A stretch of DNA of 14,365 nucleotides from a virus (Duplodnaviria > Heunggongvirae > Uroviricota > Caudoviricetes), in the IMG/VR virus record IMGVR_UViG_3300037420_000666; one strand, written 5' to 3'. Under the pieces are notes generated by a model. That model did not search any database. It was not told the origin of the DNA and worked only from the letters and a program-made list of their open reading frames with translations. A program made the translations under genes and the position numbers. Position 1 is the first letter of the stretch. Every line of letters begins with the position of its first letter. This document shows positions 1,641-13,119 of this stretch, piece after piece.

Positions 1641-2558
1641 TCAGGCGGCGTTCGCCGTTTGGCCTACGGCCGAGGCAGCGGCGCGGTCCAGGCGCTCCAA
1701 CTCAGCCAGGATCAAGGCGCCGGCCTTGACCAGCATCCGCCGCTCCGTGCCGGGCTTCCACCATTCGGGGGCCCACGGCCACAGCGTCGGCACATCGGCG
1801 CGCGGGTCGGCGTCCCCAACGCAATAGCACGCTGCTGCTGCGGCCATCTCGCCGCGCGAGTGCTCGTCGTCGTGCTCGGGCGTCCAGCCCTCGGCGCTGA
1901 CCTGGCGCGCACGCTCCGCGAGCACGTCCTGTGCGGCGGGTGTGATCGCCTGCAATGCCTCGCGGTGGGTCATCTCCCGGTCCACCGCGCGCGCAACGTC
2001 CTGCACCGATGCGCTCCAATATTCCGGCCGCATGTCGCGCGCCTTCGCTGCGCTCTCACGGGTGTTGGCCATGGCGACCACGCCGCAGGCCGCGTGACAC
2101 ATGCGCTCGCGCTCCAGCTCGGCGCGCAGCGCGCGGATCTCGTCTGCCGCCTGGATGCACGCCTCGGTGTCCAACTGGTCCCAGCAGTGGCCGCCGGCGT
2201 AGTTCGCGGCCATGGCGCGCAGGCGGGGCTCTTGGGATTCGGTGGTGACCGTAGGCGGCTGGGTCAGGGCGGCGCGGGCCTGCCATGCCTCCCAGGCATG
2301 AGCCAGCCCGCCGGCCGGCGAGTAGATGCCGTGCTTCTCGTCGCGGAAGGCGAACCCTGCGCGGATCGCCCAGCCCTCGAACGCTGCGCGCTCGTCCGGC
2401 TGCGCCCCGCTGGCGGCGGGCTGGGCCAGGGCCGCGCGCACAACTTCCATGCGTTCGCGCAGCAATGCGTAGTTGCCGCCGTGCGGCGTGCCGTCGATCG
2501 TTGCCAGCGCGTCGCTGGCGGCAGTGCGCAGGTCGGGCACGGTGGTGTTGGTGTTCAT
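1641..2558 (-). CDS. Ea22-like phage protein with C-terminal DUF550-type domain (recalled as dATP/dGTP pyrophosphohydrolase-like)
   Basis: Start set at internal ATG 2558 (MNTNTTVPDL...) with GGAG upstream; the longer frame begins at GTG and overlaps the upstream gene by about 210 nt. C-terminus WTPEHDDEHSRGEMAAAAACYC...WPWAPEWWKPGTERRMLVKAGALILAELERLDR matches my memory of the DUF550 signature found in lambda Ea22-like proteins. Sits where ea22 sits in lambda, between xis and the recombination genes. Confidence 0.65.
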   Translation of the reverse strand: MNTNTTVPDLRTAASDALATIDGTPHGGNYALLRERMEVVRAALAQPAASGAQPDERAAFEGWAIRAGFAFRDEKHGIYSPAGGLAHAWEAWQARAALTQPPTVTTESQEPRLRAMAANYAGGHCWDQLDTEACIQAADEIRALRAELERERMCHAACGVVAMANTRESAAKARDMRPEYWSASVQDVARAVDREMTHREALQAITPAAQDVLAERARQVSAEGWTPEHDDEHSRGEMAAAAACYCVGDADPRADVPTLWPWAPEWWKPGTERRMLVKAGALILAELERLDRAAASAVGQTANAA

Positions 2559-2572
2559 GGTGTTCTCCGGGG

Positions 2573-3820
2573 TTATGCGGCGAGGGCGGCAGCCCACATG
2601 TCGGGCTGCGTGGCGCCGTTCTGGTAGACGATCTCGGGCAGCACGGTGTCGGCGGTGGGCTCGTCGCCTTCCCAGCCGTCCGGCCACGTCTCGGCGGCGA
2701 TCAGCTCGCGGATGCGCGCCTCTTCCTTGGCGTTGATCAGGCTGATCTCGGGCCGGCGCAGGGCGCGCGCCGCGGCGTTGCACTCGGCCTGGATGCCCAG
2801 GACGCGCTCCAGCGCCATGGAGCGGGCCTCCAGCGTCAGCGGGCCCATGCGCTGCGGGTTCTTGGCGATCGCGCCCGACTTCAGGCGCTCGGCGCCGGCC
2901 TTCTTCAGGCGGTGCTGCGGTTCGCGCAGCTCACGCCACAGCCGCTTCAGCCCGCGCAGCGGCGCCAGGTACTGCCAGTGCGGCAGGGCCAGCACCGTCT
3001 CCAGCGCCTTCTCCTCCTGGGCCAGCGGGCAGCCGATGCAGCCTGTGCGCGCGTTGATCTCCTCGGCCTCGTCGCCGCCGTAGGCGTCCGCGATGGCGGC
3101 CGTGCTCCAGTCGCCGAACTCGGCCGCGGGCGCCCAGTGCTTCAGCCACTCCCACACGTGGCACACGCGCCAGTGCAGCAGCGGCGCGAGGGTTGCAATG
3201 CGGCCGCGCAGACCCTTCGCGTTCGGCAGCACCTGCTGGTACCAGCCTTGGCCGCACTCGGCGCCATCCTTGCTGCAGCTCATTTCGATGCGCCGGTCAC
3301 GGATGGCGCTCTCGCCCTGGCGCACGCCGGTGATCATCAGGAAGTTGCCTTGCAGCTGCAGCGCGTCCAGGCGCTGCTCCAGCGCGTGCTGCATCGGGTC
3401 GATCTTGATCTGCCGCGTGCACCACCTCAGCGTGTTGTTGTTCGGCGGCGGCACACCGCGACCCAGGATGTAGACCATAAAGCGCTTGTCCATGGGCGCA
3501 CGCACCACGTCCACCTGGATGCCGCGCTCGCGCAGCTCGTCCATGATCTGTTCGGCTGCGATGGCCAGCGGCGGCAGCTCCTGGCGCGTGTCGGCGTAGA
3601 AGATGGTCAGCGACTGCGGCGCCGCGATCTGCCCGGCGTCGATCAGCCAGCAGATCATGGTGAGCGTTGCGCTGCTGTCCTTGCCGCCTGACCAGGCAAT
3701 GCCCCAGTGCGGATGGTCCGGGCCGTAGGCCTGCAGCGACTGAATCGTGAGCTCGATGCTCTCGGTCATCTGCAGGCGCTGCGCGGTGGCGTCGAAGAAG
3801 CTGCTCTGTATGCGGCTCAT
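2573..3820 (-). CDS. PP-loop ATP-pyrophosphatase / PAPS-reductase-like protein (DndC- or phage DUF3440-like)
   Basis: Start set at ATG 3820 (MSRIQSSFFD...) with GAGGGAAGGA upstream; the longer frame starts at GTG 3889. Contains the canonical PP-loop SGGKDS (WGIAWSGGKDSSATL) and a cysteine-containing C-terminal half (TGCIGCPL). A 14-nt gap to the next gene suggests one operon. Confidence 0.8.
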   Translation of the reverse strand: MSRIQSSFFDATAQRLQMTESIELTIQSLQAYGPDHPHWGIAWSGGKDSSATLTMICWLIDAGQIAAPQSLTIFYADTRQELPPLAIAAEQIMDELRERGIQVDVVRAPMDKRFMVYILGRGVPPPNNNTLRWCTRQIKIDPMQHALEQRLDALQLQGNFLMITGVRQGESAIRDRRIEMSCSKDGAECGQGWYQQVLPNAKGLRGRIATLAPLLHWRVCHVWEWLKHWAPAAEFGDWSTAAIADAYGGDEAEEINARTGCIGCPLAQEEKALETVLALPHWQYLAPLRGLKRLWRELREPQHRLKKAGAERLKSGAIAKNPQRMGPLTLEARSMALERVLGIQAECNAAARALRRPEISLINAKEEARIRELIAAETWPDGWEGDEPTADTVLPEIVYQNGATQPDMWAAALAA

Positions 3821-3926
3821 CGTCCTGTCCTTCCCTCGTTTCTTCGTTGAGCCGGGGCGTCCACCACCCCGGCCCACCACCCCGATCACGCGCCCAACGC
3901 GTGCGGTGCGGTGATGCGGTGCACGG

Positions 3927-4592
3927 TCAGTGCACCCTCTTGAACTCCATGACCCACACCCACGGGTTCGCGCCCCATGAGCCGGCGCCGTTGATCTGCT
4001 CCCACAGCAGGCGATAGCCGCCCACGTAGTCGACCTCGGCCTCGTAGTGCGCGGCCATGCCGATGCGCTGCGCCGCGGCCTGTGCCTGACGGCTGCGCTC
4101 GGTCTGGTGCGTCGGGCACTTGCTCCACTCGACGCCTTCGGCGATGGCCTCGGCCCTGCTGCAGTCCTGCAGCCGCTCCACGCGCACGCTGGTCAGTTCC
4201 AGCGTGATGCGCGATGCCCAGCGGGGCATGTGGATCGAGGGGCGCCAAAACTCCATCGTGTCGCCCTCGTCCGCCGCGTAAATCACAGCAGAGCCGTCAG
4301 GGCGGCGCGACGGTATGTGGCGGTACACGTCATAACCACGCTCAAAGGCCTGCCACGTCTCGCGCACCCACAGTCGGTCGCCGGGTCGGCCGTAGGGACA
4401 CAGTTCGGCGGCCGCCTTCGGTCGCACCCACGACGGATCTGCAGGTTGCAGGCAGGCTGCCAGGCCCGGAGTGCGGTGCGTGATCTTCACGGCGCGCCGC
4501 GTCTGCGTCTTGGTGCCAGCCAGCAGCGCCCGCACCATCGGCGCGCTGAAGAGGATGGGGCGCTCGCGCGCCGCAGTGGTTGCGGCGCTCAT
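3927..4592 (-). CDS. Conserved phage protein, tentatively ASCH/PUA-like
   Basis: 221-aa ORF with ATG start and GAGG upstream. N-terminal ILFSAPMVRALLAGTKTQTRR resembles the ASCH G-x-K-x-x-x-R strand motif; assignment is from memory and tentative. Its start overlaps the stop of the upstream gene (4590-4596). Confidence 0.6.
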   Translation of the reverse strand: MSAATTAARERPILFSAPMVRALLAGTKTQTRRAVKITHRTPGLAACLQPADPSWVRPKAAAELCPYGRPGDRLWVRETWQAFERGYDVYRHIPSRRPDGSAVIYAADEGDTMEFWRPSIHMPRWASRITLELTSVRVERLQDCSRAEAIAEGVEWSKCPTHQTERSRQAQAAAQRIGMAAHYEAEVDYVGGYRLLWEQINGAGSWGANPWVWVMEFKRVH

Positions 4593-4593
4593 C

Positions 4594-5211
4594 TCAGTGC
4601 CTCGCCTCGCTGGTGGCGATGAACGCGTCCGTCGCGTCCATCACGGGCGCCTCGTCGTCGAGCAGGTCGGCTTGCTCGGGGTGGTCGGCGTCGAACGCGG
4701 CCTTGCTGCCGTCGATGGCCTCTTGCTTGGGCACCGGCGGCGTGAGCGTGATCACGATGCCCTGGCCGTTCTTCTTCCACAGCATCCCGGCCGCTTCTTC
4801 GTCCAGCTCGCTGGTGCCCACCCGGAAGCTCAGGTCCACGCTGCCGCCTTCGCACGGGTGGACCTTGAAGCCGTCCACCTTGCACGTGCCCAGGCGGATC
4901 GCGCTGCCGTCGTCGATGCCGTGGGCCACGGTGACGGCCCAGCCCTCGAAGCTGCGCTCCAGGCTCAGCGAGCCGATGCCCTGGGCGCGCAGCAGCGGCG
5001 TGGACTCCTCGATGCCGTCGAGCTGCGGCTGACCGTCTGCAGCCTTGTAGAGGGACATGCGCAGGCCCGGGGCCAGCGTGTCGAGGATCGTGTTCGGCGC
5101 GGTGATCGTGATGCCCAAGCTGACGGCGGGCACGCGCTCGTCGCCGTGCATCTCGGTGCGACCGGTGAAGCTGGTCAGCTTGGCCTGGGTGTCGGTGAGT
5201 TGGAACTGCAT
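4594..5211 (-). CDS. Hypothetical phage protein with acidic C-terminal tail
   Basis: 205-aa ORF, ATG at 5211 preceded by AGGAAA. No family recognised. C-terminal DADHPEQADLLDDEAPVMDATDAFI is strongly acidic. Stop is 1 nt from the next start. Confidence 0.7.
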   Translation of the reverse strand: MQFQLTDTQAKLTSFTGRTEMHGDERVPAVSLGITITAPNTILDTLAPGLRMSLYKAADGQPQLDGIEESTPLLRAQGIGSLSLERSFEGWAVTVAHGIDDGSAIRLGTCKVDGFKVHPCEGGSVDLSFRVGTSELDEEAAGMLWKKNGQGIVITLTPPVPKQEAIDGSKAAFDADHPEQADLLDDEAPVMDATDAFIATSEARH

Positions 5212-5245: not shown

Positions 5246-5566
5246 TCAGTACGGAACGGCCTCGGCCTCGATGCCGGCCGGCGTCTTGCCGCACTTGCAC
5301 GCTCCGCAGCCGGCGCACTTCTCGGCCAGGGCCTGGGCGTGCGCCTCTTCGGCGGCGATCTGCGCCACGGTCTCAGCGGGCAGGCCCAGGCGCTCGGCGG
5401 CGCGCTGGATTGCGTGGTCGGTGTTGCCGTGCACCTGGCGCATGGTCTCGACGGTGCTGGCTACGGTCGCGCGGGAAACGATGGGATCGGGCATATCGGT
5501 CTCGGTTGTGGTCATGCGGTGCCGGGCGCTGGCCCGGCGGGTTTTGAACTTGGAGCGGTGGGGCAT
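5246..5566 (-). CDS. Hypothetical small Cys-rich protein
   Basis: 106-aa ORF whose ATG overlaps the stop of the upstream gene (TGATG at 5564-5568). GC-rich third codon positions through the N-terminal extension. C-terminal cluster CAGCGACKCGK may bind metal. Internal ATG at 5515 is an alternative start. Confidence 0.5.
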   Translation of the reverse strand: MPHRSKFKTRRASARHRMTTTETDMPDPIVSRATVASTVETMRQVHGNTDHAIQRAAERLGLPAETVAQIAAEEAHAQALAEKCAGCGACKCGKTPAGIEAEAVPY

Positions 5567-6783
5567 CAGGCCGGCACGGCCTTGGCGGCACCCTCGGCCT
5601 CGGCGATGGCGGCGCGGGCCTCGACCATCTCGGGCGCGTGCTCGATCAGACCCTCTTCGTCGCTGTCGGCCATCGACGTCACCAGGGCGCGCAGCGCCTT
5701 CAGCAGCCGCGGGGCCGCATCGCGCAGGCGCTTGTCGGCTGCGGCGCGGGCTTCTTCCTCGCGCTGGCGGGCCGCGGCGGCTTCACGGGCCACGCGCTGC
5801 GCCTCGGCCAGCTCGGCGGCGGCCTTGCGCTCCTCGGCTTCGCGCGCCTCCCGTGCAATGCGGTCGGCCTCGGCGCGGGCTGCGGCGGCCTGGCGCTCTT
5901 GCTCGGCGAGGGCTTCGCGCTGGCGGCGCATCTCCGCTTCGTGGGCCTCGCGCTCGGCGCGCAGCTTCGCCTCGTGCTCGGCCCGCTCCTTGTCGCGCTT
6001 CAGGGCCGCAGCGATCTCCTCGGCCTCGCGCTGCTCGCGAGCCTTGCGCTCTTCCTCGGCGCGCGCGGCGGCGGCCTCCTCGTCGCGCTTCTTCTGCTCG
6101 GCGCGCAGCTTGGCCAGCTCGGCGCGCTCCGCGGCGAGGCGGGCGGCTTCGGCTTCGCGCTCCACCGCGGCAGCGTGCATGTCGCGCAGCTGCTTCAGCG
6201 TGTCGGCCTTTGCCTCCTCGGCCTTGCCGCGGTACTCCTCGAAGTCGTCGCCGATGGCAAGCGCCTCGATGTCCGCGATGTGCTGGGCGATCTGCTCGGC
6301 GGTGCAGCGCAGGGACGCCACCACGATGGCCTCGATGTCGTTGGCGATGCGGTCCTGGTGCGCCTTCACGCGCGCCGCCTCGGCCGCGGCCTTCGCCTGC
6401 TTCTCGGCTTCCTTGCGCTGCTCCTCAGCCTTGATCTGGGCGTCGTAGTGCTCTTCGCCAGCCAGCAGCTTCGCAGTGAGCTCGCCGGCAAAGCTGTCGA
6501 TGGCCTTGCCCAGGGCGAGCACCGGGGCCTTGGCGTCCTTGCGGGCCTTCTCGACAGCCAGGCGCGGCGTGCGCCAAGCGGCTCGGGCGGCGATGGCCGA
6601 CTTCATGCCGGCGGTGGTGCTGATCTCGGCGATCAGCACGTCCTTGGGGTGCTGCTTCTCCAGCTCGGCCAGGCCCGCGGCGATCTTGTCGAAGGCGCCC
6701 ACGTGCGTTTGCACGGTGGCGATGTTGGAGGCGATGCCGGCGACAGCGGCGGCGGCGGTGGTTTCTTGAGCGACGGTTTCCAT
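5566..6783 (-). CDS. Phage protein with a long E/R/K/A-rich charged helical repeat region
   Basis: Start set at ATG 6783 (METVAQETT...); the longer frame starts at GTG 6867 with no RBS and overlaps the exonuclease gene. The central ~200 aa are a near-continuous run of A/E/R/K (for example AEAARLAAERAELAKLRAEQKKRDEEAAAARAEEERKAREQREAEE), predicted coiled coil or single alpha helix. Confidence 0.7.
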   Translation of the reverse strand: METVAQETTAAAAVAGIASNIATVQTHVGAFDKIAAGLAELEKQHPKDVLIAEISTTAGMKSAIAARAAWRTPRLAVEKARKDAKAPVLALGKAIDSFAGELTAKLLAGEEHYDAQIKAEEQRKEAEKQAKAAAEAARVKAHQDRIANDIEAIVVASLRCTAEQIAQHIADIEALAIGDDFEEYRGKAEEAKADTLKQLRDMHAAAVEREAEAARLAAERAELAKLRAEQKKRDEEAAAARAEEERKAREQREAEEIAAALKRDKERAEHEAKLRAEREAHEAEMRRQREALAEQERQAAAARAEADRIAREAREAEERKAAAELAEAQRVAREAAAARQREEEARAAADKRLRDAAPRLLKALRALVTSMADSDEEGLIEHAPEMVEARAAIAEAEGAAKAVPA

Positions 6784-6811: not shown

Positions 6812-7480
6812 TCAGGCGGCCAGCGGCATCGGGCGGCGCAGGGCGGCCTCGTGCTGGTCCACCACACGGCGGAAGTCCATCAGGTCGGACTCCAGGGCTT
6901 CGATTGCGTCGTCATCGCGGCGGATGCGCTGGATGAACAGGCTCTTGCCCACCGGTTCCAGCCAGGGGCAGAACACCACTAGGTCGCACCAGGCGCGGCC
7001 GGTGATCCAGAGTCCGCCCAGGATCTGGTCGCGGTACTCGTCGGCCGCGTGGGCCGGGTCCGTCCAGATCAGGCCCAGCTTGTCGCAAGCGGCCGGGCAC
7101 TTGATCTCGACCATGCCCACATCGCCCACGAAGCCGTCCGTGCTGTAGCCGAAGGCGCCGTCGTCGGTGAAGACGATGCCGGCCTCCATGGCCAGCGAGC
7201 CGGTGTGCTGCTCGTAGGCCTCGCGCGCTGCGGGCTCCAGCTCGGTGCCGCGCTTCATGGCCCACGTGACGAAGGTGTCATCCAGCGACGTGCCGCTGAT
7301 GCGCTCCATGGCCAGGGTCCATGCGTACTTGATGGCCTCGCTGCTGGGGTCGCCCGCCTTGCGGTCGCCGCTGGCGCGCTTCAGCTTCGAGCGGGCATCA
7401 CTGAAGCGGCTGGCGGTGATCACGCCGGCGCGCGCGGCCAGCCATTCCTGCGTGCCCTGTTGGACTTGAAGGAAGCGCAT
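6812..7480 (-). CDS. YqaJ-like viral recombinase-associated exonuclease (lambda Exo functional analogue)
   Basis: N-terminal QQGTQEWLAARAGVITASRFSDA is the hallmark YqaJ/PD-(D/E)XK exonuclease opening. ATG at 7480 lies 4 nt after the RecT stop, the classic RecT-exonuclease pair. Confidence 0.9.
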   Translation of the reverse strand: MRFLQVQQGTQEWLAARAGVITASRFSDARSKLKRASGDRKAGDPSSEAIKYAWTLAMERISGTSLDDTFVTWAMKRGTELEPAAREAYEQHTGSLAMEAGIVFTDDGAFGYSTDGFVGDVGMVEIKCPAACDKLGLIWTDPAHAADEYRDQILGGLWITGRAWCDLVVFCPWLEPVGKSLFIQRIRRDDDAIEALESDLMDFRRVVDQHEAALRRPMPLAA

Positions 7481-7483
7481 GGC

Positions 7484-8491
7484 TCAGGCCTCCAGCGCTT
7501 CGCCGCGCACCGCGATCAGCTTCTCCAGCCGCGTGCGCTCCTCGCCCTCGGGCAGCGTGGCCACGTCGTCGCCGATGAGCAACAACACCTGGGCGTCGCT
7601 GCAGCTGCCGATGCGCTGCTCCAACGCCACCACGTCCAGGCCCGGGGCAGCATCGGCGGCCGGCATGTCCACGGTGCGCGCAGCGTCGGCGTCGATCGCG
7701 GCTTGCTTCAGGCGCGGGTGGTGCTCGGCGAGGTGCTTGCGGTTGGCCGGGCCGGTGGACTTCCAGAATTCCTGGTACGCGGCCACGCCCTCGGCGGCGG
7801 CGTTCTCGGCGGCCTCCAGCAGGCCGGCGGGCATCTGCGGTGCTTCGGGCGCCTGCGGCTGCACGGTGTTGGCCGGGCCCATGTTCTTGGGTGGCGCGAT
7901 CTGCTCCAGCTCGTCGGGCGTGTAGATGCCCAGGATGGCGCCAGGCGTGTAGAGGCGGGCCCAGTTCTTGGCCTGCAGATATCCAAGCTGCTGTTTCGGG
8001 TTCGTCTTCCACAGCGGCGAATTCCTGGTCGTGACCGACTTCATGCACAGCCACTCGCCCCAGGTGATCTCCTGCTCGCCACGCAGCACCGCGCCCGCGC
8101 GGCACTCGACGGCTTCGCCGGTGCCCTTGAACTCGTACTTGAACGTGCCGTGGATCGCGCCGCTGGCCTGCACCACCGCGATGACCAGTTGCGCCTCGTA
8201 GCCCAGCGTGCCGTTGACCACGTGCGTCTTCTGGGCCACGGCGTAGGGGTTCATGCGCCACTGCGCGGCCTGCATCGCCACCGCCAGGCAGTCGCCCGTC
8301 TTGCCCTGCAGGTGCTTGGGCACGGTGATGGTGGCCTTGGCCATCTCCTGGGCCACCACGGCCAGGGCGTTCATGGTGGTGGCGTCCATCAGCAGGTCCA
8401 GCGCGCCAACGCGCGTCGGGCCTGCGGCCATGGCGGGCTGCTGCTCGATGGGGGCGGCCAGGGCCAGCGGTTGTTCGGTCATCGTGTTCAT
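7484..8491 (-). CDS. recT: RecT-family single-strand annealing protein
   Basis: 335-aa ORF. Motifs VPKHLQGKTGDCLAVAMQAAQWRMNPY...THVVNGTLGYEAQL...ECRAGAVLRGEQEITWGEWLCMKS fit the RecT/Red-beta family. ATG at 8491 preceded by GAGGA. Immediately upstream of the YqaJ exonuclease. Confidence 0.9.
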   Translation of the reverse strand: MNTMTEQPLALAAPIEQQPAMAAGPTRVGALDLLMDATTMNALAVVAQEMAKATITVPKHLQGKTGDCLAVAMQAAQWRMNPYAVAQKTHVVNGTLGYEAQLVIAVVQASGAIHGTFKYEFKGTGEAVECRAGAVLRGEQEITWGEWLCMKSVTTRNSPLWKTNPKQQLGYLQAKNWARLYTPGAILGIYTPDELEQIAPPKNMGPANTVQPQAPEAPQMPAGLLEAAENAAAEGVAAYQEFWKSTGPANRKHLAEHHPRLKQAAIDADAARTVDMPAADAAPGLDVVALEQRIGSCSDAQVLLLIGDDVATLPEGEERTRLEKLIAVRGEALEA

Positions 8492-8658: not shown

Positions 8659-9135
8659 TCAGGCTCCCTTGCAGAAGTCGATGAGGGCGCGCACGCCGCG
8701 GCGGCGCTGGGTGGTGCCTCGCACGATCCAAAGGCCGGTGCCGGGCCAGAAGTCCACAAGCTGCTTCTGTCCGGCTCGCACAACCAGGTGCGCGCCGTCG
8801 TTCTTGCTTGTGAACTGGATGCCTTGCTCGGCCAGCATCTGCGCGCCCTCGGCGCGGTTGTTGGCGCGGCGCTGCTGGTCGGCCTGGATGTCGCCTTTCA
8901 CGGCGCGCCAGAAGTCGCCTACCGTTTCGCCGTCGTCATCGTCGCGCGGGCTCTTGGGAGGCTTGATGCCGTGCGCGTCCTTGCGGTGCTGGCTCAACTG
9001 CTCCGGCTGCGCAAAGCGGCGCGTGCACTTGTCGCAAGCGTGCGGCTTCTCTTGCTTGGCCGGCTGCTGGGTGGCGGCCTTGACCTTGCGGCGGTGCGCG
9101 TCGCGCTCGCGCCAGATGTCTCCGATGTCTCCCAT
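8659..9135 (-). CDS. Phage protein with a classical C2H2-type zinc finger
   Basis: Start set at ATG 9135 (MGDIGDIWRERDAH...) with GGAG upstream; the longer frame begins at TTG 9180. Contains CDKC-x12-H-x4-H (HACDKCTRRFAQPEQLSQHRKDAHG), which is C-x2-C-x12-H-x4-H spacing. The C-terminal half (GAHLVVRAGQKQLVDFWPGTGLWIVRG) was not recognised. Confidence 0.7.
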   Translation of the reverse strand: MGDIGDIWRERDAHRRKVKAATQQPAKQEKPHACDKCTRRFAQPEQLSQHRKDAHGIKPPKSPRDDDDGETVGDFWRAVKGDIQADQQRRANNRAEGAQMLAEQGIQFTSKNDGAHLVVRAGQKQLVDFWPGTGLWIVRGTTQRRRGVRALIDFCKGA

Positions 9136-9136
9136 G

Positions 9137-9229
9137 TCAGGCTCCAACGAGGACGCGGAACGCGTAGCCCGCGAGCGCAATCAGCGCCGTGCCGGCCATC
9201 ACGATCAGCTCGGGTGCGATGCGGTTCAT
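9137..9229 (-). CDS. Putative 30-aa hydrophobic micro-protein
   Basis: MNRIAPELIVMAGTALIALAGYAFRVLVGA, a single predicted transmembrane helix. Its ATG shares ATGA with the upstream stop (9226-9229) and its stop lies 1 nt before the next start (9135). The longer 87-aa frame has an implausible N-terminus overlapping neighbours. Confidence 0.4.
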   Translation of the reverse strand: MNRIAPELIVMAGTALIALAGYAFRVLVGA

Positions 9230-10848: not shown

Positions 10849-11006
10849 CTTTTTGTTTGGCGGCGCCTTATCTGCTCGATGTGAAAGGCCCGTCGGGTAG
10901 CGGGCGCAGGAGTGCTGTAGCGCGCCGCCGCACTGCGACGCGCGGCCTACTGCTTCACCGTCCACGCGCTGGCCCGCATTGCTGCGCAGCGCATTCCCCA
11001 GACGTG

Positions 11007-11059: not shown

Positions 11060-11590
11060 TTAGTTTCGTCCGATCCAGCGGATACCAAGCCAGGCCAAGC
11101 CCGAAAGCAATGGAAGCGACAAGTTCAGGGCCAGGAACCCGTTCTCGGTAAGGTTGTAGTCCCATCTCCAGATGACACCCCAGAGCTGCACAGCAACTAC
11201 CCACAGAATGCTGGCAACAATCCAGGCGCGTGTCCGTCGCCTGCACTGCTCGCGGATCGCCTTCAAGCGCACTTCTGGCTTGGCAGCCTCAAGCACCGAC
11301 AGCAGCTTGGCGTGCCCGCCTCCATCTGCATATCGAAGGTAAGCGTCGTACTTCTTGCGCCGCTCCGGGTCTCCGAGGGTGTGCAAGGCCTGCTGAGTGA
11401 GCGCATACCGGGCGGGCGCGTCCTTGCTGCCACAGCCCGTTTTTGGGTGGTAAGTGGCGCTGAAAAAGCTGTGCGCCATTTCTATGTAGTCTTGCGTGGC
11501 ATTCGGCTGTAAATCAAGAACTCGATAGAAATCAACGATTCCATCTGCCCTTTTGAACTCGTCTAATACACGCTGCGCATCCTCGTCCAT
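11060..11590 (-). CDS. Membrane-anchored J-domain (DnaJ-like) protein with HPK in place of HPD
   Basis: 176 aa. Residues about 20-85 align along the whole J-domain pattern (DFYRVLDLQPNATQDYIEMAHSFFSATYHPKTG...ALHTLGDPERRKKYDAYL versus DnaJ DYYEILGV...YHPDRN...AYEVLTDSQKRAAYDQYG). The tripeptide is HPK (codons CAC CCA AAA, top 11441-11449). Two C-terminal hydrophobic segments (AWIVASILWVVAVQLWGVIW, FLALNLSLPLLSGLAWLGIRWI). Lower GC than the flanks; in the repressor-cargo region. Confidence 0.75.
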   Translation of the reverse strand: MDEDAQRVLDEFKRADGIVDFYRVLDLQPNATQDYIEMAHSFFSATYHPKTGCGSKDAPARYALTQQALHTLGDPERRKKYDAYLRYADGGGHAKLLSVLEAAKPEVRLKAIREQCRRRTRAWIVASILWVVAVQLWGVIWRWDYNLTENGFLALNLSLPLLSGLAWLGIRWIGRN

Positions 11591-11668: not shown

Positions 11669-11902
11669 TCAGCGTATTCGCTGAGCCAATTCATCATCAA
11701 GCGCAGCTAACATCCCGCGAGCAAATGTTGGATTCCGATGGGCTTCGCCGCTGGTATTTACAACGAACCCTCGTTGTTTTGTCATTGCGGCGTATGCGAC
11801 CCCTATCACTTCGCCTCGTTCCGCTCGCTCCAGAAGGTTTCTTAAGTCGGCCACCACGTCGTGTGGGGCCTCCTCCCGAACGAGGCGAAACGGAGGCTTC
11901 AT
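11669..11902 (-). CDS. Hypothetical 77-aa protein coupled to the repressor gene
   Basis: ATG overlaps the repressor stop (ATGA at 11899-11902) and is preceded by AAGGAAA. Sequence MKPPFRLVREEAPHDVVADLRNLLERAERGEVIGVAYAAMTKQRGFVVNTSGEAHRNPTFARGMLAALDDELAQRIR; no family recognised. Lower GC than the flanks. Confidence 0.55.
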   Translation of the reverse strand: MKPPFRLVREEAPHDVVADLRNLLERAERGEVIGVAYAAMTKQRGFVVNTSGEAHRNPTFARGMLAALDDELAQRIR

Positions 11903-12744
11903 GACTTCTTTTCCTTGCCGCTTTCATCGGTACGGATGATCCGCTCCATGCCCGGCATGGGGCGGTCGCTGAAGTACTTACCGCCGGGCGGCTGTTCCTT
12001 CTGAACCGGAACAGCGCGCGCGGTGCGCCCGATCCTTTCCAAGAATCGAGGCAATTCCTCCCGTGGTTTTATTTTTCGTGCCGGCACAGGGTGCGGCACG
12101 TAATAGACCCAAGTTACTTCGGTGGGGCTGAAACTTAAAACTTCCGGCGAGTTATAACTTCCAAATCTCCACCCGCCGCGCCGGCTCAGCAGTCGCTTGA
12201 GCATAGTCGAACCATCGGCCAAGCGCACAAGAACGTCATCCTCAAGATCGGGGTCGCTGCTTGGCTCGACTAGCGCATATTCGTTTGGCATGTATTTGGG
12301 GATCATCGAATCTCCGACGACCCGGCAGACAAACGCGTAATCGTCGCTGCTGAGCACCTCGGCAAATTCGGTGGCCTCCGAAAGCCAGTTGTCATCGAAT
12401 ATCCGCTCCGGCATTCCTCCCTGGCAGGTGCCGCACACGTAGACCGGGCGGACGCTGCGCGCCGGGAGTGTCTGAGGCGGAGCACTCTCTGTCGCAACCA
12501 TGACTGACAGGCCAGCACTGACCGTGCCCGGGTAGGCCGTCAGGCCCCAATGCTCCGGCCCAACCACATTTGCAAACAGAGCCCAGAGCCCCGGCAGCTT
12601 CTCCTTCGAGATGGTTCCGCGGTTCACCCAGTCCTGGATCGTCGGCGGCTTGACCCCGAAATGCTCCGCCAGGGCTTTCTTGGTGATGCCCTTTTTTAGT
12701 CTGGCCGCCTCGATGGCTTGCCCTAGTTCGATCCCGGTAAGCAT
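11899..12744 (-). CDS. CI/LexA-like prophage repressor (N-terminal XRE-type HTH, C-terminal S24 peptidase domain)
   Basis: 281 aa. N-terminal HTH (LGQAIEAARLKKGITKKALAEHFGVKPPTIQDWVNRG) and an S24 autoproteolysis domain with Ser and Lys motifs (VVGDSMIPKYMPNEYALV ... DGSTMLKRL). Carries an unusual ~60-aa C-terminal tail. Divergent from a Cro-like gene; AGGA lies 10 nt upstream of the ATG. Confidence 0.9.
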   Translation of the reverse strand: MLTGIELGQAIEAARLKKGITKKALAEHFGVKPPTIQDWVNRGTISKEKLPGLWALFANVVGPEHWGLTAYPGTVSAGLSVMVATESAPPQTLPARSVRPVYVCGTCQGGMPERIFDDNWLSEATEFAEVLSSDDYAFVCRVVGDSMIPKYMPNEYALVEPSSDPDLEDDVLVRLADGSTMLKRLLSRRGGWRFGSYNSPEVLSFSPTEVTWVYYVPHPVPARKIKPREELPRFLERIGRTARAVPVQKEQPPGGKYFSDRPMPGMERIIRTDESGKEKKS

Positions 12745-12819: not shown

Positions 12820-13119
12820 ATGAACGATCCCATCAACGACCTCGGCGGTCCGACTGCGGTGGCAAAGATGCTGTGCATCAAGGCCCCGTCCGTCGTCCAG
12901 TGGAAAGGCCGCATTCCGGCTGAACGGCGCGTGGACCTGGAGCGCGTCGCCTACCCCAAGTTCTGGGTTGAGCGCGCCGGCGACGACGTGCGCTGGCAGC
13001 GCGTGCCCGATCCCGAGTGGCCGCATCCCGATGGCCGCCCTTGTATCGACGTTGCCGCGATGCGCCCCCCGCTCCCCCAAGCCGCCGCCGCAGCTCCCCA
13101 GGCTGTGGCTGCGAGCTGA
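12820..13119 (+). CDS. Cro/YdaS-like HTH regulator
   Basis: 99 aa. DLGGPTAVAKMLCIKAPSVVQWKGRIPAERRVDLERV matches the YdaS/Cro-type HTH pattern (...QW..rG.iPaeR...iE..). Divergent from the repressor across the operator region. No Shine-Dalgarno upstream, so possibly leaderless. Confidence 0.75.
   Translation: MNDPINDLGGPTAVAKMLCIKAPSVVQWKGRIPAERRVDLERVAYPKFWVERAGDDVRWQRVPDPEWPHPDGRPCIDVAAMRPPLPQAAAAAPQAVAAS

Follow-up and report, generated by a model that had tools for sequence, protein, structure and literature searches.

Do three adjacent genes at the integrase-proximal end of a phage early operon form one system of nucleic-acid chemistry, or are they accessory genes that were acquired separately? 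The question is raised by a 14,365-nucleotide stretch of DNA from a virus of the class Caudoviricetes (IMG/VR record IMGVR_UViG_3300037420_000666), referred to below as the window, which is part of the 45-kb JGI metagenome contig Ga0395908_0000467. Between positions 1641 and 4592 the minus strand of the window carries the genes for an ASCH-like protein of the PmgT family (221 residues, phrog_874; 3927..4592), a DndC-like PP-loop protein (415 residues, phrog_12882; 2573..3820) and p305 (305 residues; 1641-2558), after which come xis and then int. The three open reading frames (ORFs) were picked out in an earlier reading made without database searches (the sequence-only reading), and gene calls made independently on the source contig bear them out. 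That reading took the trio for a possible DNA-modification or anti-restriction module, or for one that manipulates the nucleotide pool. We find that its members belong to known, widespread and uncharacterized phage accessory families and that together they make up an ordinary accessory cluster. The interpretation that we prefer, with a probability of roughly 0.55, is that of independently acquired accessory genes, among them one for a DndC-clade enzyme that would modify nucleic acid or subvert phosphorothioate-based restriction, and not of a three-gene system.

The DndC-like protein and its gene neighborhoods

That the 415-residue protein belongs to the PP-loop/PAPS reductase superfamily (PAPS, phosphoadenosine phosphosulfate), as had been read from its translation, is clear from a match to PF01507 (PAPS_reduct) over residues 41-227 that scores 36.5 bits against a gathering cut-off of 22.5. 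The PP-loop SGGKDS itself occupies residues 44-49 (3674..3691, minus strand, from the translation), within the stretch WSGGKDSS at residues 43-50, and is invariant in the alignment with DndC. DndC profiles cover residues 22-384, with scores of 94.4 bits (NCBIfam TIGR03183) and 105 bits (PADLOC, E 9e-31), the former remaining far below the TIGR03183 equivalog cut-off of 290.4 bits. The PADLOC profiles for SspD and BrxP reach 34 and 39 bits, respectively, as against 105 for DndC, so that the protein is neither of these, and in PHROGs it matches phrog_12882 with an E value of 2e-234. Identity to Salmonella DndC is 24-27%, and the alignment shows the two proteins to have in common, besides SGGKDS, the motifs ADT, RWC(134)T, G-x-R-x2-ES-x2-R and R-x-G-C(261)-x2-C(264). 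Shared positions reach W383, and the homology therefore spans the DndC-specific C-terminal extension, to residue ~383, in addition to the PAPS reductase core.

The phage family also departs from DndC in several respects. Its members end ∼110 residues short of DndC and have no counterpart of the cysteine just ahead of the CxxC pair; C134, C261 and C264 align with cysteines of the Salmonella protein, while the pre-CxxC cysteine is replaced by a family-specific pair in the context S-C(182)-x6-C(189)-G-Q-G. Six cysteines are 86-94% conserved among 50 diverse representatives. Judged by these sequence features the family is a distinct DndC clade with a cysteine pattern of its own. Salmonella has a dndBCDE operon, whereas the phage protein stands alone, with no dndA, dndB, dndD or dndE beside it; no Dnd partner was found in the window or in the source contig between 18.9 and 45.1 kb, so that there is no dndBCDE/dndA operon in this region. 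An IbrA/IbrB-type pair was considered and rejected, as there is no DUF3440 match at E<=10 and no ParB-like match in the neighboring genes. The sole fusion among 150 representatives of the family (P0287, 580 residues) carries an N-terminal DUF6884 domain followed by PAPS_reduct, and none of the 150 is fused to a methyltransferase.

The family is both widespread and conserved. It comprises 142 representative clusters at E<=1e-30, and the gene is found in 335 IMG/VR contigs, with 76-86% identity in the best 79 besides the source contig, and, with 65-89% identity across proteobacterial prophages, in 207 of the 185,579 species genomes. Pseudomonas phages Dobby, phiC725A and D14A, Rhizobium phage RR1-A and Microcystis phage Mae-JY29 all encode phrog_12882 proteins that are 64-79% identical to the one studied here, the Rhizobium and Microcystis copies being 64-70% identical, with the lowest value (64%) that of the Microcystis phage, a cyanophage. 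In these phages, as here, the gene lies in the early or accessory region of a temperate genome; there it abuts a DNA methyltransferase, whereas here its neighbors are the ASCH-fold gene and a gene at the Ea22 position. At the nucleotide level the DndC-like gene alone matches known phages (∼80% to Pseudomonas aeruginosa phages) and the rest of the 14-kb window, including the flanks of the trio, gives no nucleotide match to known phages. The best relatives of other proteins of the window reach identities of at most 63% (ASCH-like), 62% (RecT) and 34% (Int). Conservation is thus unusually high across phages of several bacterial phyla. With a protein so much better conserved than its neighbors and with flanks that are unmatched, the gene looks like one for a strongly constrained enzyme that travels as a single-gene cassette, and so high a degree of conservation is what one would expect of an enzyme and not of a protein inhibitor that evolves fast.

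In order to describe the surroundings of the gene we have used 80 viral and 80 genome loci anchored on DndC-like genes, 80 viral loci anchored on ASCH-like genes and, as a control, 22 viral loci anchored on RecT, of which 21 enter the control counts; the window proteins and phage methyltransferases served as tblastn queries against all of these loci. The GC3-based gene caller applied to neighboring loci is crude, and for this reason the statistics were drawn from tblastn searches with named queries and from clusters of the ORFs immediately next to the DndC-like gene. Given the phylogenetic redundancy of the loci and the small size of the control set, all p-values given below are rough.

The regular partner of the family is a DNA methyltransferase. 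Large C5 methyltransferases occur in 39/80 viral and 27/80 genome DndC-like loci (directly adjacent in 12 of the latter), in ∼20/80 ASCH-like loci and in 2/21 RecT loci, an enrichment with p = 0.0006 for the viral set (39/79 against 2/21) and p = 0.02 for the genome set. Among the genes directly flanking the DndC-like gene in the 160 loci there are 42 C5 methyltransferases belonging to two families (26 and 16), 8 proteins combining SNF2 with an N6/N4 methyltransferase, 7 Dam, 7 reverse transcriptases, 7 small classical ASCH proteins (PF04266), 6 PmgT-type ASCH proteins and 4 DUF5131 proteins. The suggestion made from the sequence that the partner here is something other than the ParB-like nuclease found beside many such genes holds, the usual partner of this family being a methyltransferase, and none is seen in the source phage over the 26 kb between contig positions 18.9 and 45.1 kb. 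The C5 methyltransferases of the Dobby type that abut DndC-like genes (for example L002:2921-4831 and L061:6234-8147) contain about six '(S/A)(V/I)ADPR' repeats between their catalytic halves, which may be multiple target-recognition modules. The reverse transcriptases are of the RVT_1 family and stand immediately upstream of the DndC-like gene, as at L025:3311-4753 and in six other loci.

The other two members of the trio are far less regular neighbors. A PmgT-type ASCH gene is present in 17/80 viral DndC-like loci, a count that includes the source phage and two 36-residue remnants, in 5/80 genome loci and in 1/21 RecT loci, so that the association is not significant (p = 0.08 viral, 0.64 genome); where present, its order relative to the DndC-like gene varies, with copies on both sides and at distances from 60 nucleotides to 5.6 kb. 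Conversely, a DndC-like gene is found in 1/80 ASCH-like loci and in none of the 21 controls. The C-terminal domain of p305 occurs in five of 80 loci in each of the three sets (viral DndC-like, genome DndC-like and ASCH-like) and in 0/21 RecT loci. Complete trios were found in only one of the 159 other DndC-like loci, a prophage of Azohydromonas lata (L247), where the genes are spread over ∼6 kb. With just the source phage and this prophage carrying it, the trio is not a conserved module, and the notion of a single three-gene unit is not supported.

A second, unrelated ASCH family has a closer link to the DndC-like gene. Small ASCH proteins (PF04266, ∼125 residues; an example is at L230:5612-5989) are encoded in 15/160 DndC-like loci and in 1/101 controls (p = 0.004), often in a position that separates the methyltransferase from the DndC-like gene and directly beside the latter. 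Both the order methyltransferase-ASCH-DndC (L216, L244, L016, L017) and the order methyltransferase-DndC-ASCH (L067-L069, L262) are observed. Jointly the two ASCH families account for 34/159 loci (∼21%) and they never share one. With redundant loci and a small control set we take this co-occurrence for a lead that falls short of a finding.

The ASCH-like protein and p305

The ASCH-like protein is a member of the PmgT family, as judged by tblastn similarity to PmgT of phage P1 (36% identity over 93% of the query, E 1e-24), which is annotated in databases as a C1-controlled early gene of that phage. Relatives are present in 157 phage records from many hosts, where they are called hypothetical, "RNA binding protein" or "ASCH/YqfB-like". 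The assignment to an ASCH/PUA-like protein made from the sequence stands at the level of the fold, through a PUA-like β-barrel and an N-terminal GxKxxExR-type motif, and fails at the level of families, since neither PF04266 (ASCH) nor any other Pfam family matches at E<=10; NCBIfam, PADLOC and PDB sequence searches, with the single protein and with a profile, likewise returned nothing useful.

Residues invariant among 45 homologues include R21, K28, R32, R33, E78, R124, R128 and E152, and T31 is at least 90% conserved. Several of these lie in the motif GTKTQTRR (residues 26-33; 4494..4517, minus strand), probably equivalent to the segment GRKTITIR of YqfB that contains Lys21, Thr24 and Arg26. 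In a local, low-probability hhalign match the segment ILFSAPMVRALLAGTKTQTRR aligns with the N-terminus of YqfB (residues 1-29) and places K28, T31 and R33 on these three residues, and at the sequence level either of the invariant E78 and E152 is a candidate for the counterpart of the catalytic Glu74. Mutation of Lys21, Thr24 or Arg26 inactivates YqfB, an N4-acylcytidine amidohydrolase (PMC6972931), and diverse ASCH proteins from several lineages have been reported to erase N4-acetylcytidine (ac4C) from tRNA (2026 preprint, bioRxiv 10.64898/2026.02.27.708502). YqfB is half the size of the phage protein, which has two insertions relative to it. The retained motif and the ac4C erasure by ASCH proteins make it reasonable to suppose that the phage protein is probably a hydrolase or reader of modified cytosine, whether in DNA, in tRNA or in a nucleoside.

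p305 consists of a variable N-terminal part (residues 1-204; 1947..2558, minus strand), predicted by AlphaFold2 (AF2) as low-confidence helices with a predicted local distance difference test (pLDDT) score mostly <75 and belonging to no conserved family, and a conserved helical C-terminal domain (residues ∼205-300; 1659..1946, minus strand) predicted with pLDDT >90. Its homologues are alike only in the C-terminal ∼95 residues and have mutually unrelated N-termini, as the products of genes at the Ea22 position commonly do. E215, R216, R218, Q219, E223, G224, D231, Y245, R273, E288, R289, D291 and R292 are invariant in the domain. The earlier identification of p305 as a DUF550 protein is not borne out: no Pfam family, DUF550 (PF04447) included, matches either p305 at E<=10 or any of 24 copies of its C-terminal domain. 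There is also no match for p305 in NCBIfam or PADLOC, and none for the C-terminal domain in a PDB sequence search; PDB searches with single proteins yielded nothing of use either.

Its description as Ea22-like is correct in a limited sense. The C-terminal domain is found in mosaic proteins that NCBI names ead/Ea22-like and that carry PF13935 (Ead_Ea22), whereas PF13935 does not match the N-terminal region of p305. Ead/Ea22-like proteins of lambdoid prophages and gp37 of Burkholderia phage BcepC6B share the ∼95-residue domain and, like p305, are encoded near xis-int in the early-left operon; the N-terminal part of these proteins is unrelated to that of p305. In all, the domain occurs in 115 phage records, nearly all of them annotated as 'hypothetical' and one as 'zinc-ribbon protein'. 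Its likeness to all-α nucleoside triphosphate (NTP) pyrophosphatases (MazG, dimeric dUTPase, AF0060) is weak; a fold of this kind is weakly suggested, and the four-helix domain may hydrolyze nucleotides as a pyrophosphatase that depends on metal. A deletion scar that joins two accessory genes is present in a P. aeruginosa prophage (L061:9983-10413; also L064), where the initial ∼50 residues of a PmgT/ASCH-like gene continue, with a frameshift, into a gene for an Ea22-type C-terminal domain.

Competing explanations for function

According to the reading that we prefer, the accessory genes occupy the end nearest the integrase in the early-left operon of a temperate, P22-like phage, and the DndC-like enzyme would act without the other two. 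With its intact PP-loop it should adenylate a substrate with ATP, releasing pyrophosphate; the six conserved cysteines could hold an iron-sulfur (Fe-S) cluster and/or a persulfide, for which the sulfur source would be the host cysteine desulfurase IscS. The enzyme would then modify a nucleic acid, of which phage DNA is the likeliest, or else it would interfere with phosphorothioate-based restriction (Dnd, Ssp, BREX type 4). The methyltransferase that adjoins the gene in about one third to one half of its relatives could supply DNA targeting, and in the source phage the enzyme would work without one. These activities, and the anti-defense role, we infer from the observed domains, motifs, folds and neighborhood statistics.

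An anti-restriction or DNA-modification role, as first proposed for the whole trio, is in our view plausible for the DndC-like gene, given its place in the DndC clade, its link to methyltransferases and a precedent in a vibriophage. There a protein in which a PAPS domain is fused to Dam has been shown by experiment to belong to a system for escaping Dnd (Piel et al., bioRxiv 10.1101/2021.05.05.442762). Compared by description only, this vibriophage protein, p0018, resembles the DndC-like protein in having a PAPS-reductase-type domain, which it couples to DNA methylation in a 479-residue fusion with a short PAPS domain, whereas the DndC-like protein has neither a methyltransferase domain nor a methyltransferase as neighbor. 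Phage PAPS reductases have been found clustered in anti-defense hotspots and are listed in reviews as candidate anti-defense genes, and a 2024 preprint on Thermus phages notes that PAPS-reductase-like proteins deserve investigation.

Several points weigh against this interpretation. The activity of the family is read from sequence, and the published anti-Dnd case concerns a Dam fusion whose effect was not separated from that of a second gene (bioRxiv 10.1101/2021.05.05.442762). DndC and SspD are ATP pyrophosphatases that, according to the literature, require a cysteine desulfurase and DNA-handling partners; for DndC to act on DNA these are DndD and DndE, and nothing similar is encoded in the window or between 18.9 and 45.1 kb of the contig. 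Finally, the presence of ASCH genes of two unrelated families in 34/159 loci, with the small type in 15/160 loci against 1/101 controls, means that some functional coupling with an ASCH gene is possible, the redundancy of the loci and the 21-locus control again leaving these p-values rough.

Such coupling would be the essence of a functional pair, in which the DndC-like protein writes a modified base or backbone and an ASCH-fold protein reads or erases it, often with a methyltransferase and with p305 unrelated. The recurrence of two non-homologous ASCH families, never both at once, in DndC-like loci, the direct contact between small ASCH and DndC-like genes with the methyltransferase in two orders, and the C5 methyltransferases in about a quarter of the PmgT-type loci (∼20/80) all speak for it. 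We nevertheless consider a pair doubtful, since in ∼79% of DndC-like loci an ASCH-fold gene is absent from the surrounding 5-6 kb, a DndC-like gene is missing from 79/80 PmgT-type loci, the PmgT type taken by itself shows neither a fixed position nor a significant association, and the loci are not phylogenetically independent. Somewhat less probable still is a stand-alone DndC-like enzyme that installs a nucleic-acid modification alone or with host IscS, an ASCH-fold protein (of the PmgT type in the source phage, of the small type in other loci) serving as its dedicated reader or eraser and DNA methyltransferases as optional targeting factors. The modification would be either a phosphorothioate made without DndD and DndE or a sulfur or cytosine modification that has yet to be described, and, if this were true, writer and ASCH protein would amount to a minimal phage-borne epigenetic writer/eraser system against restriction. 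Extending the scheme to all three genes, with a PP-loop writer, an ASCH reader or hydrolase and a p305 domain that clears the canonical nucleotide as a deoxynucleoside triphosphate (dNTP) pyrophosphatase, we regard as improbable. The single operon with gaps of 14 and 106 nucleotides and no internal promoter or terminator, folds that all suit nucleotide chemistry and the recurrence of the three families in the A. lata prophage are what can be said in its favor, to be set against one occurrence in 159 other loci, dispersed over ∼6 kb, a p305 domain that is common (115 diverse phage records) and present in just 10/160 DndC-like and 5/80 ASCH-like loci, and the fact that DndC-type chemistry targets polymer DNA and not the dNTP pool.

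Two further explanations remove DNA from the picture. The targets could be RNA, with the PP-loop/Fe-S enzyme thiolating tRNA in the manner of TtcA, TtuA and Ncs6 and the ASCH protein removing ac4C from tRNA, so as to reprogram host translation. Fe-S-dependent PP-loop thiolases do act on tRNA (background cited in PMC11185695), tRNA ac4C erasure by ASCH proteins has been reported (bioRxiv 10.64898/2026.02.27.708502) and the K-x-x-T-x-R motif of YqfB is retained here; yet the homology to DndC is full length, C-terminal extension included, other PP-loop families match much more weakly and the recurrent neighbors are DNA methyltransferases, and we judge this scenario unlikely. An auxiliary metabolic gene for assimilatory sulfate reduction, with the function of CysH, would accord with the database name 'phosphoadenosine phosphosulfate reductase', with the PHROG category 'moron, auxiliary metabolic gene' and with the view taken in older literature (PMC2920897). 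This we consider very improbable indeed and have rejected as an identification, for the CysH PAPS reductase profile NF002537 gives 15.2 bits against a cut-off of 154, in comparison with the 94-105 bits of the full-length DndC profiles, and the neighbors are DNA-modification genes.

Stand-alone PAPS-reductase/DndC-like genes have been known in phages since phage 186 and phiE125, and they are still annotated as sulfur metabolism. What is added here is a distinct DndC clade, its unusual conservation and its recurrent methyltransferase and, less often, ASCH-fold neighbors. If the enzyme modifies DNA or blunts phosphorothioate-based immunity, it would be a widespread single-gene anti-defense tool, of which the window holds one ordinary instance that lacks the usual methyltransferase partner.

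The source phage and the surrounding genes

The window has a G+C content of ∼70% and its genuine genes lie on the minus strand. The contig encodes an S24 repressor, Cro, a RecT/YqaJ pair, xis (DUF1233) and a tyrosine integrase, in addition to lysis genes, DnaB, terminase and a P22-type portal, a complement from which we conclude that the phage is temperate and P22-like. The nearest relatives of the DndC-like gene are in Aquincola, Azohydromonas, Variovorax and Piscinibacter, which points to a probable host within the Burkholderiales.

Upstream of the trio, all on the minus strand, are the genes for RecT (7484-8491), the YqaJ exonuclease (6812-7480), p405 (5566-6783), p106 (5246-5566) and p205 (4594-5211), the last ending 1 nucleotide from the start of the ASCH-like gene. 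p405 is highly charged, rich in Ala, Glu and Arg and probably a coiled coil, and its gene contains a 33-nucleotide tandem repeat (5910-5976). None of p205, p106 and p405 matches anything in Pfam, NCBIfam or PADLOC, even at lax thresholds, and p205 has no match in PHROGs either; relatives of p205 lie near DndC-like genes in 15/160 loci and near ASCH-like genes in 4/80. Within the trio an intergenic spacer of 106 nucleotides (3821..3926, minus strand), in which a GAAGGA ribosome-binding site precedes the DndC-like start, separates the first two genes and a spacer of 14 nucleotides the DndC-like gene from p305. The three genes are roughly as tightly packed as had been stated from the sequence, with the correction that p205, p106 and p405 intervene between them and the RecT/YqaJ recombination genes. 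A scan found no promoter-like or terminator-like site inside the trio region, the 106-nucleotide spacer included, from which we conclude that the trio is transcribed together with the other genes of the early-left operon; nothing relevant came out of Rfam, tRNA, tandem-repeat and promoter/terminator scans run over the window.

Farther from the trio the window contains a 173-residue ORF with a C2H2-like 'CDKCTRRF...HRKDAH' motif (8659-9180), a DnaJ-domain protein with hydrophobic C-terminal segments (11060-11590), the S24 repressor (11899-12744) and Cro (12820-13119, plus strand). Between positions 11000 and 12500, across the immunity region to which the last three belong, G+C drops from ∼0.70 to 0.52-0.61. 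On the source contig a Peptidase_M15_3 gene and a holin gene follow directly past int on the opposite strand (L004:14570-16917), and with lysis genes in this position the 45-kb contig has the look of a phage genome that is free or complete rather than of an integrated prophage.

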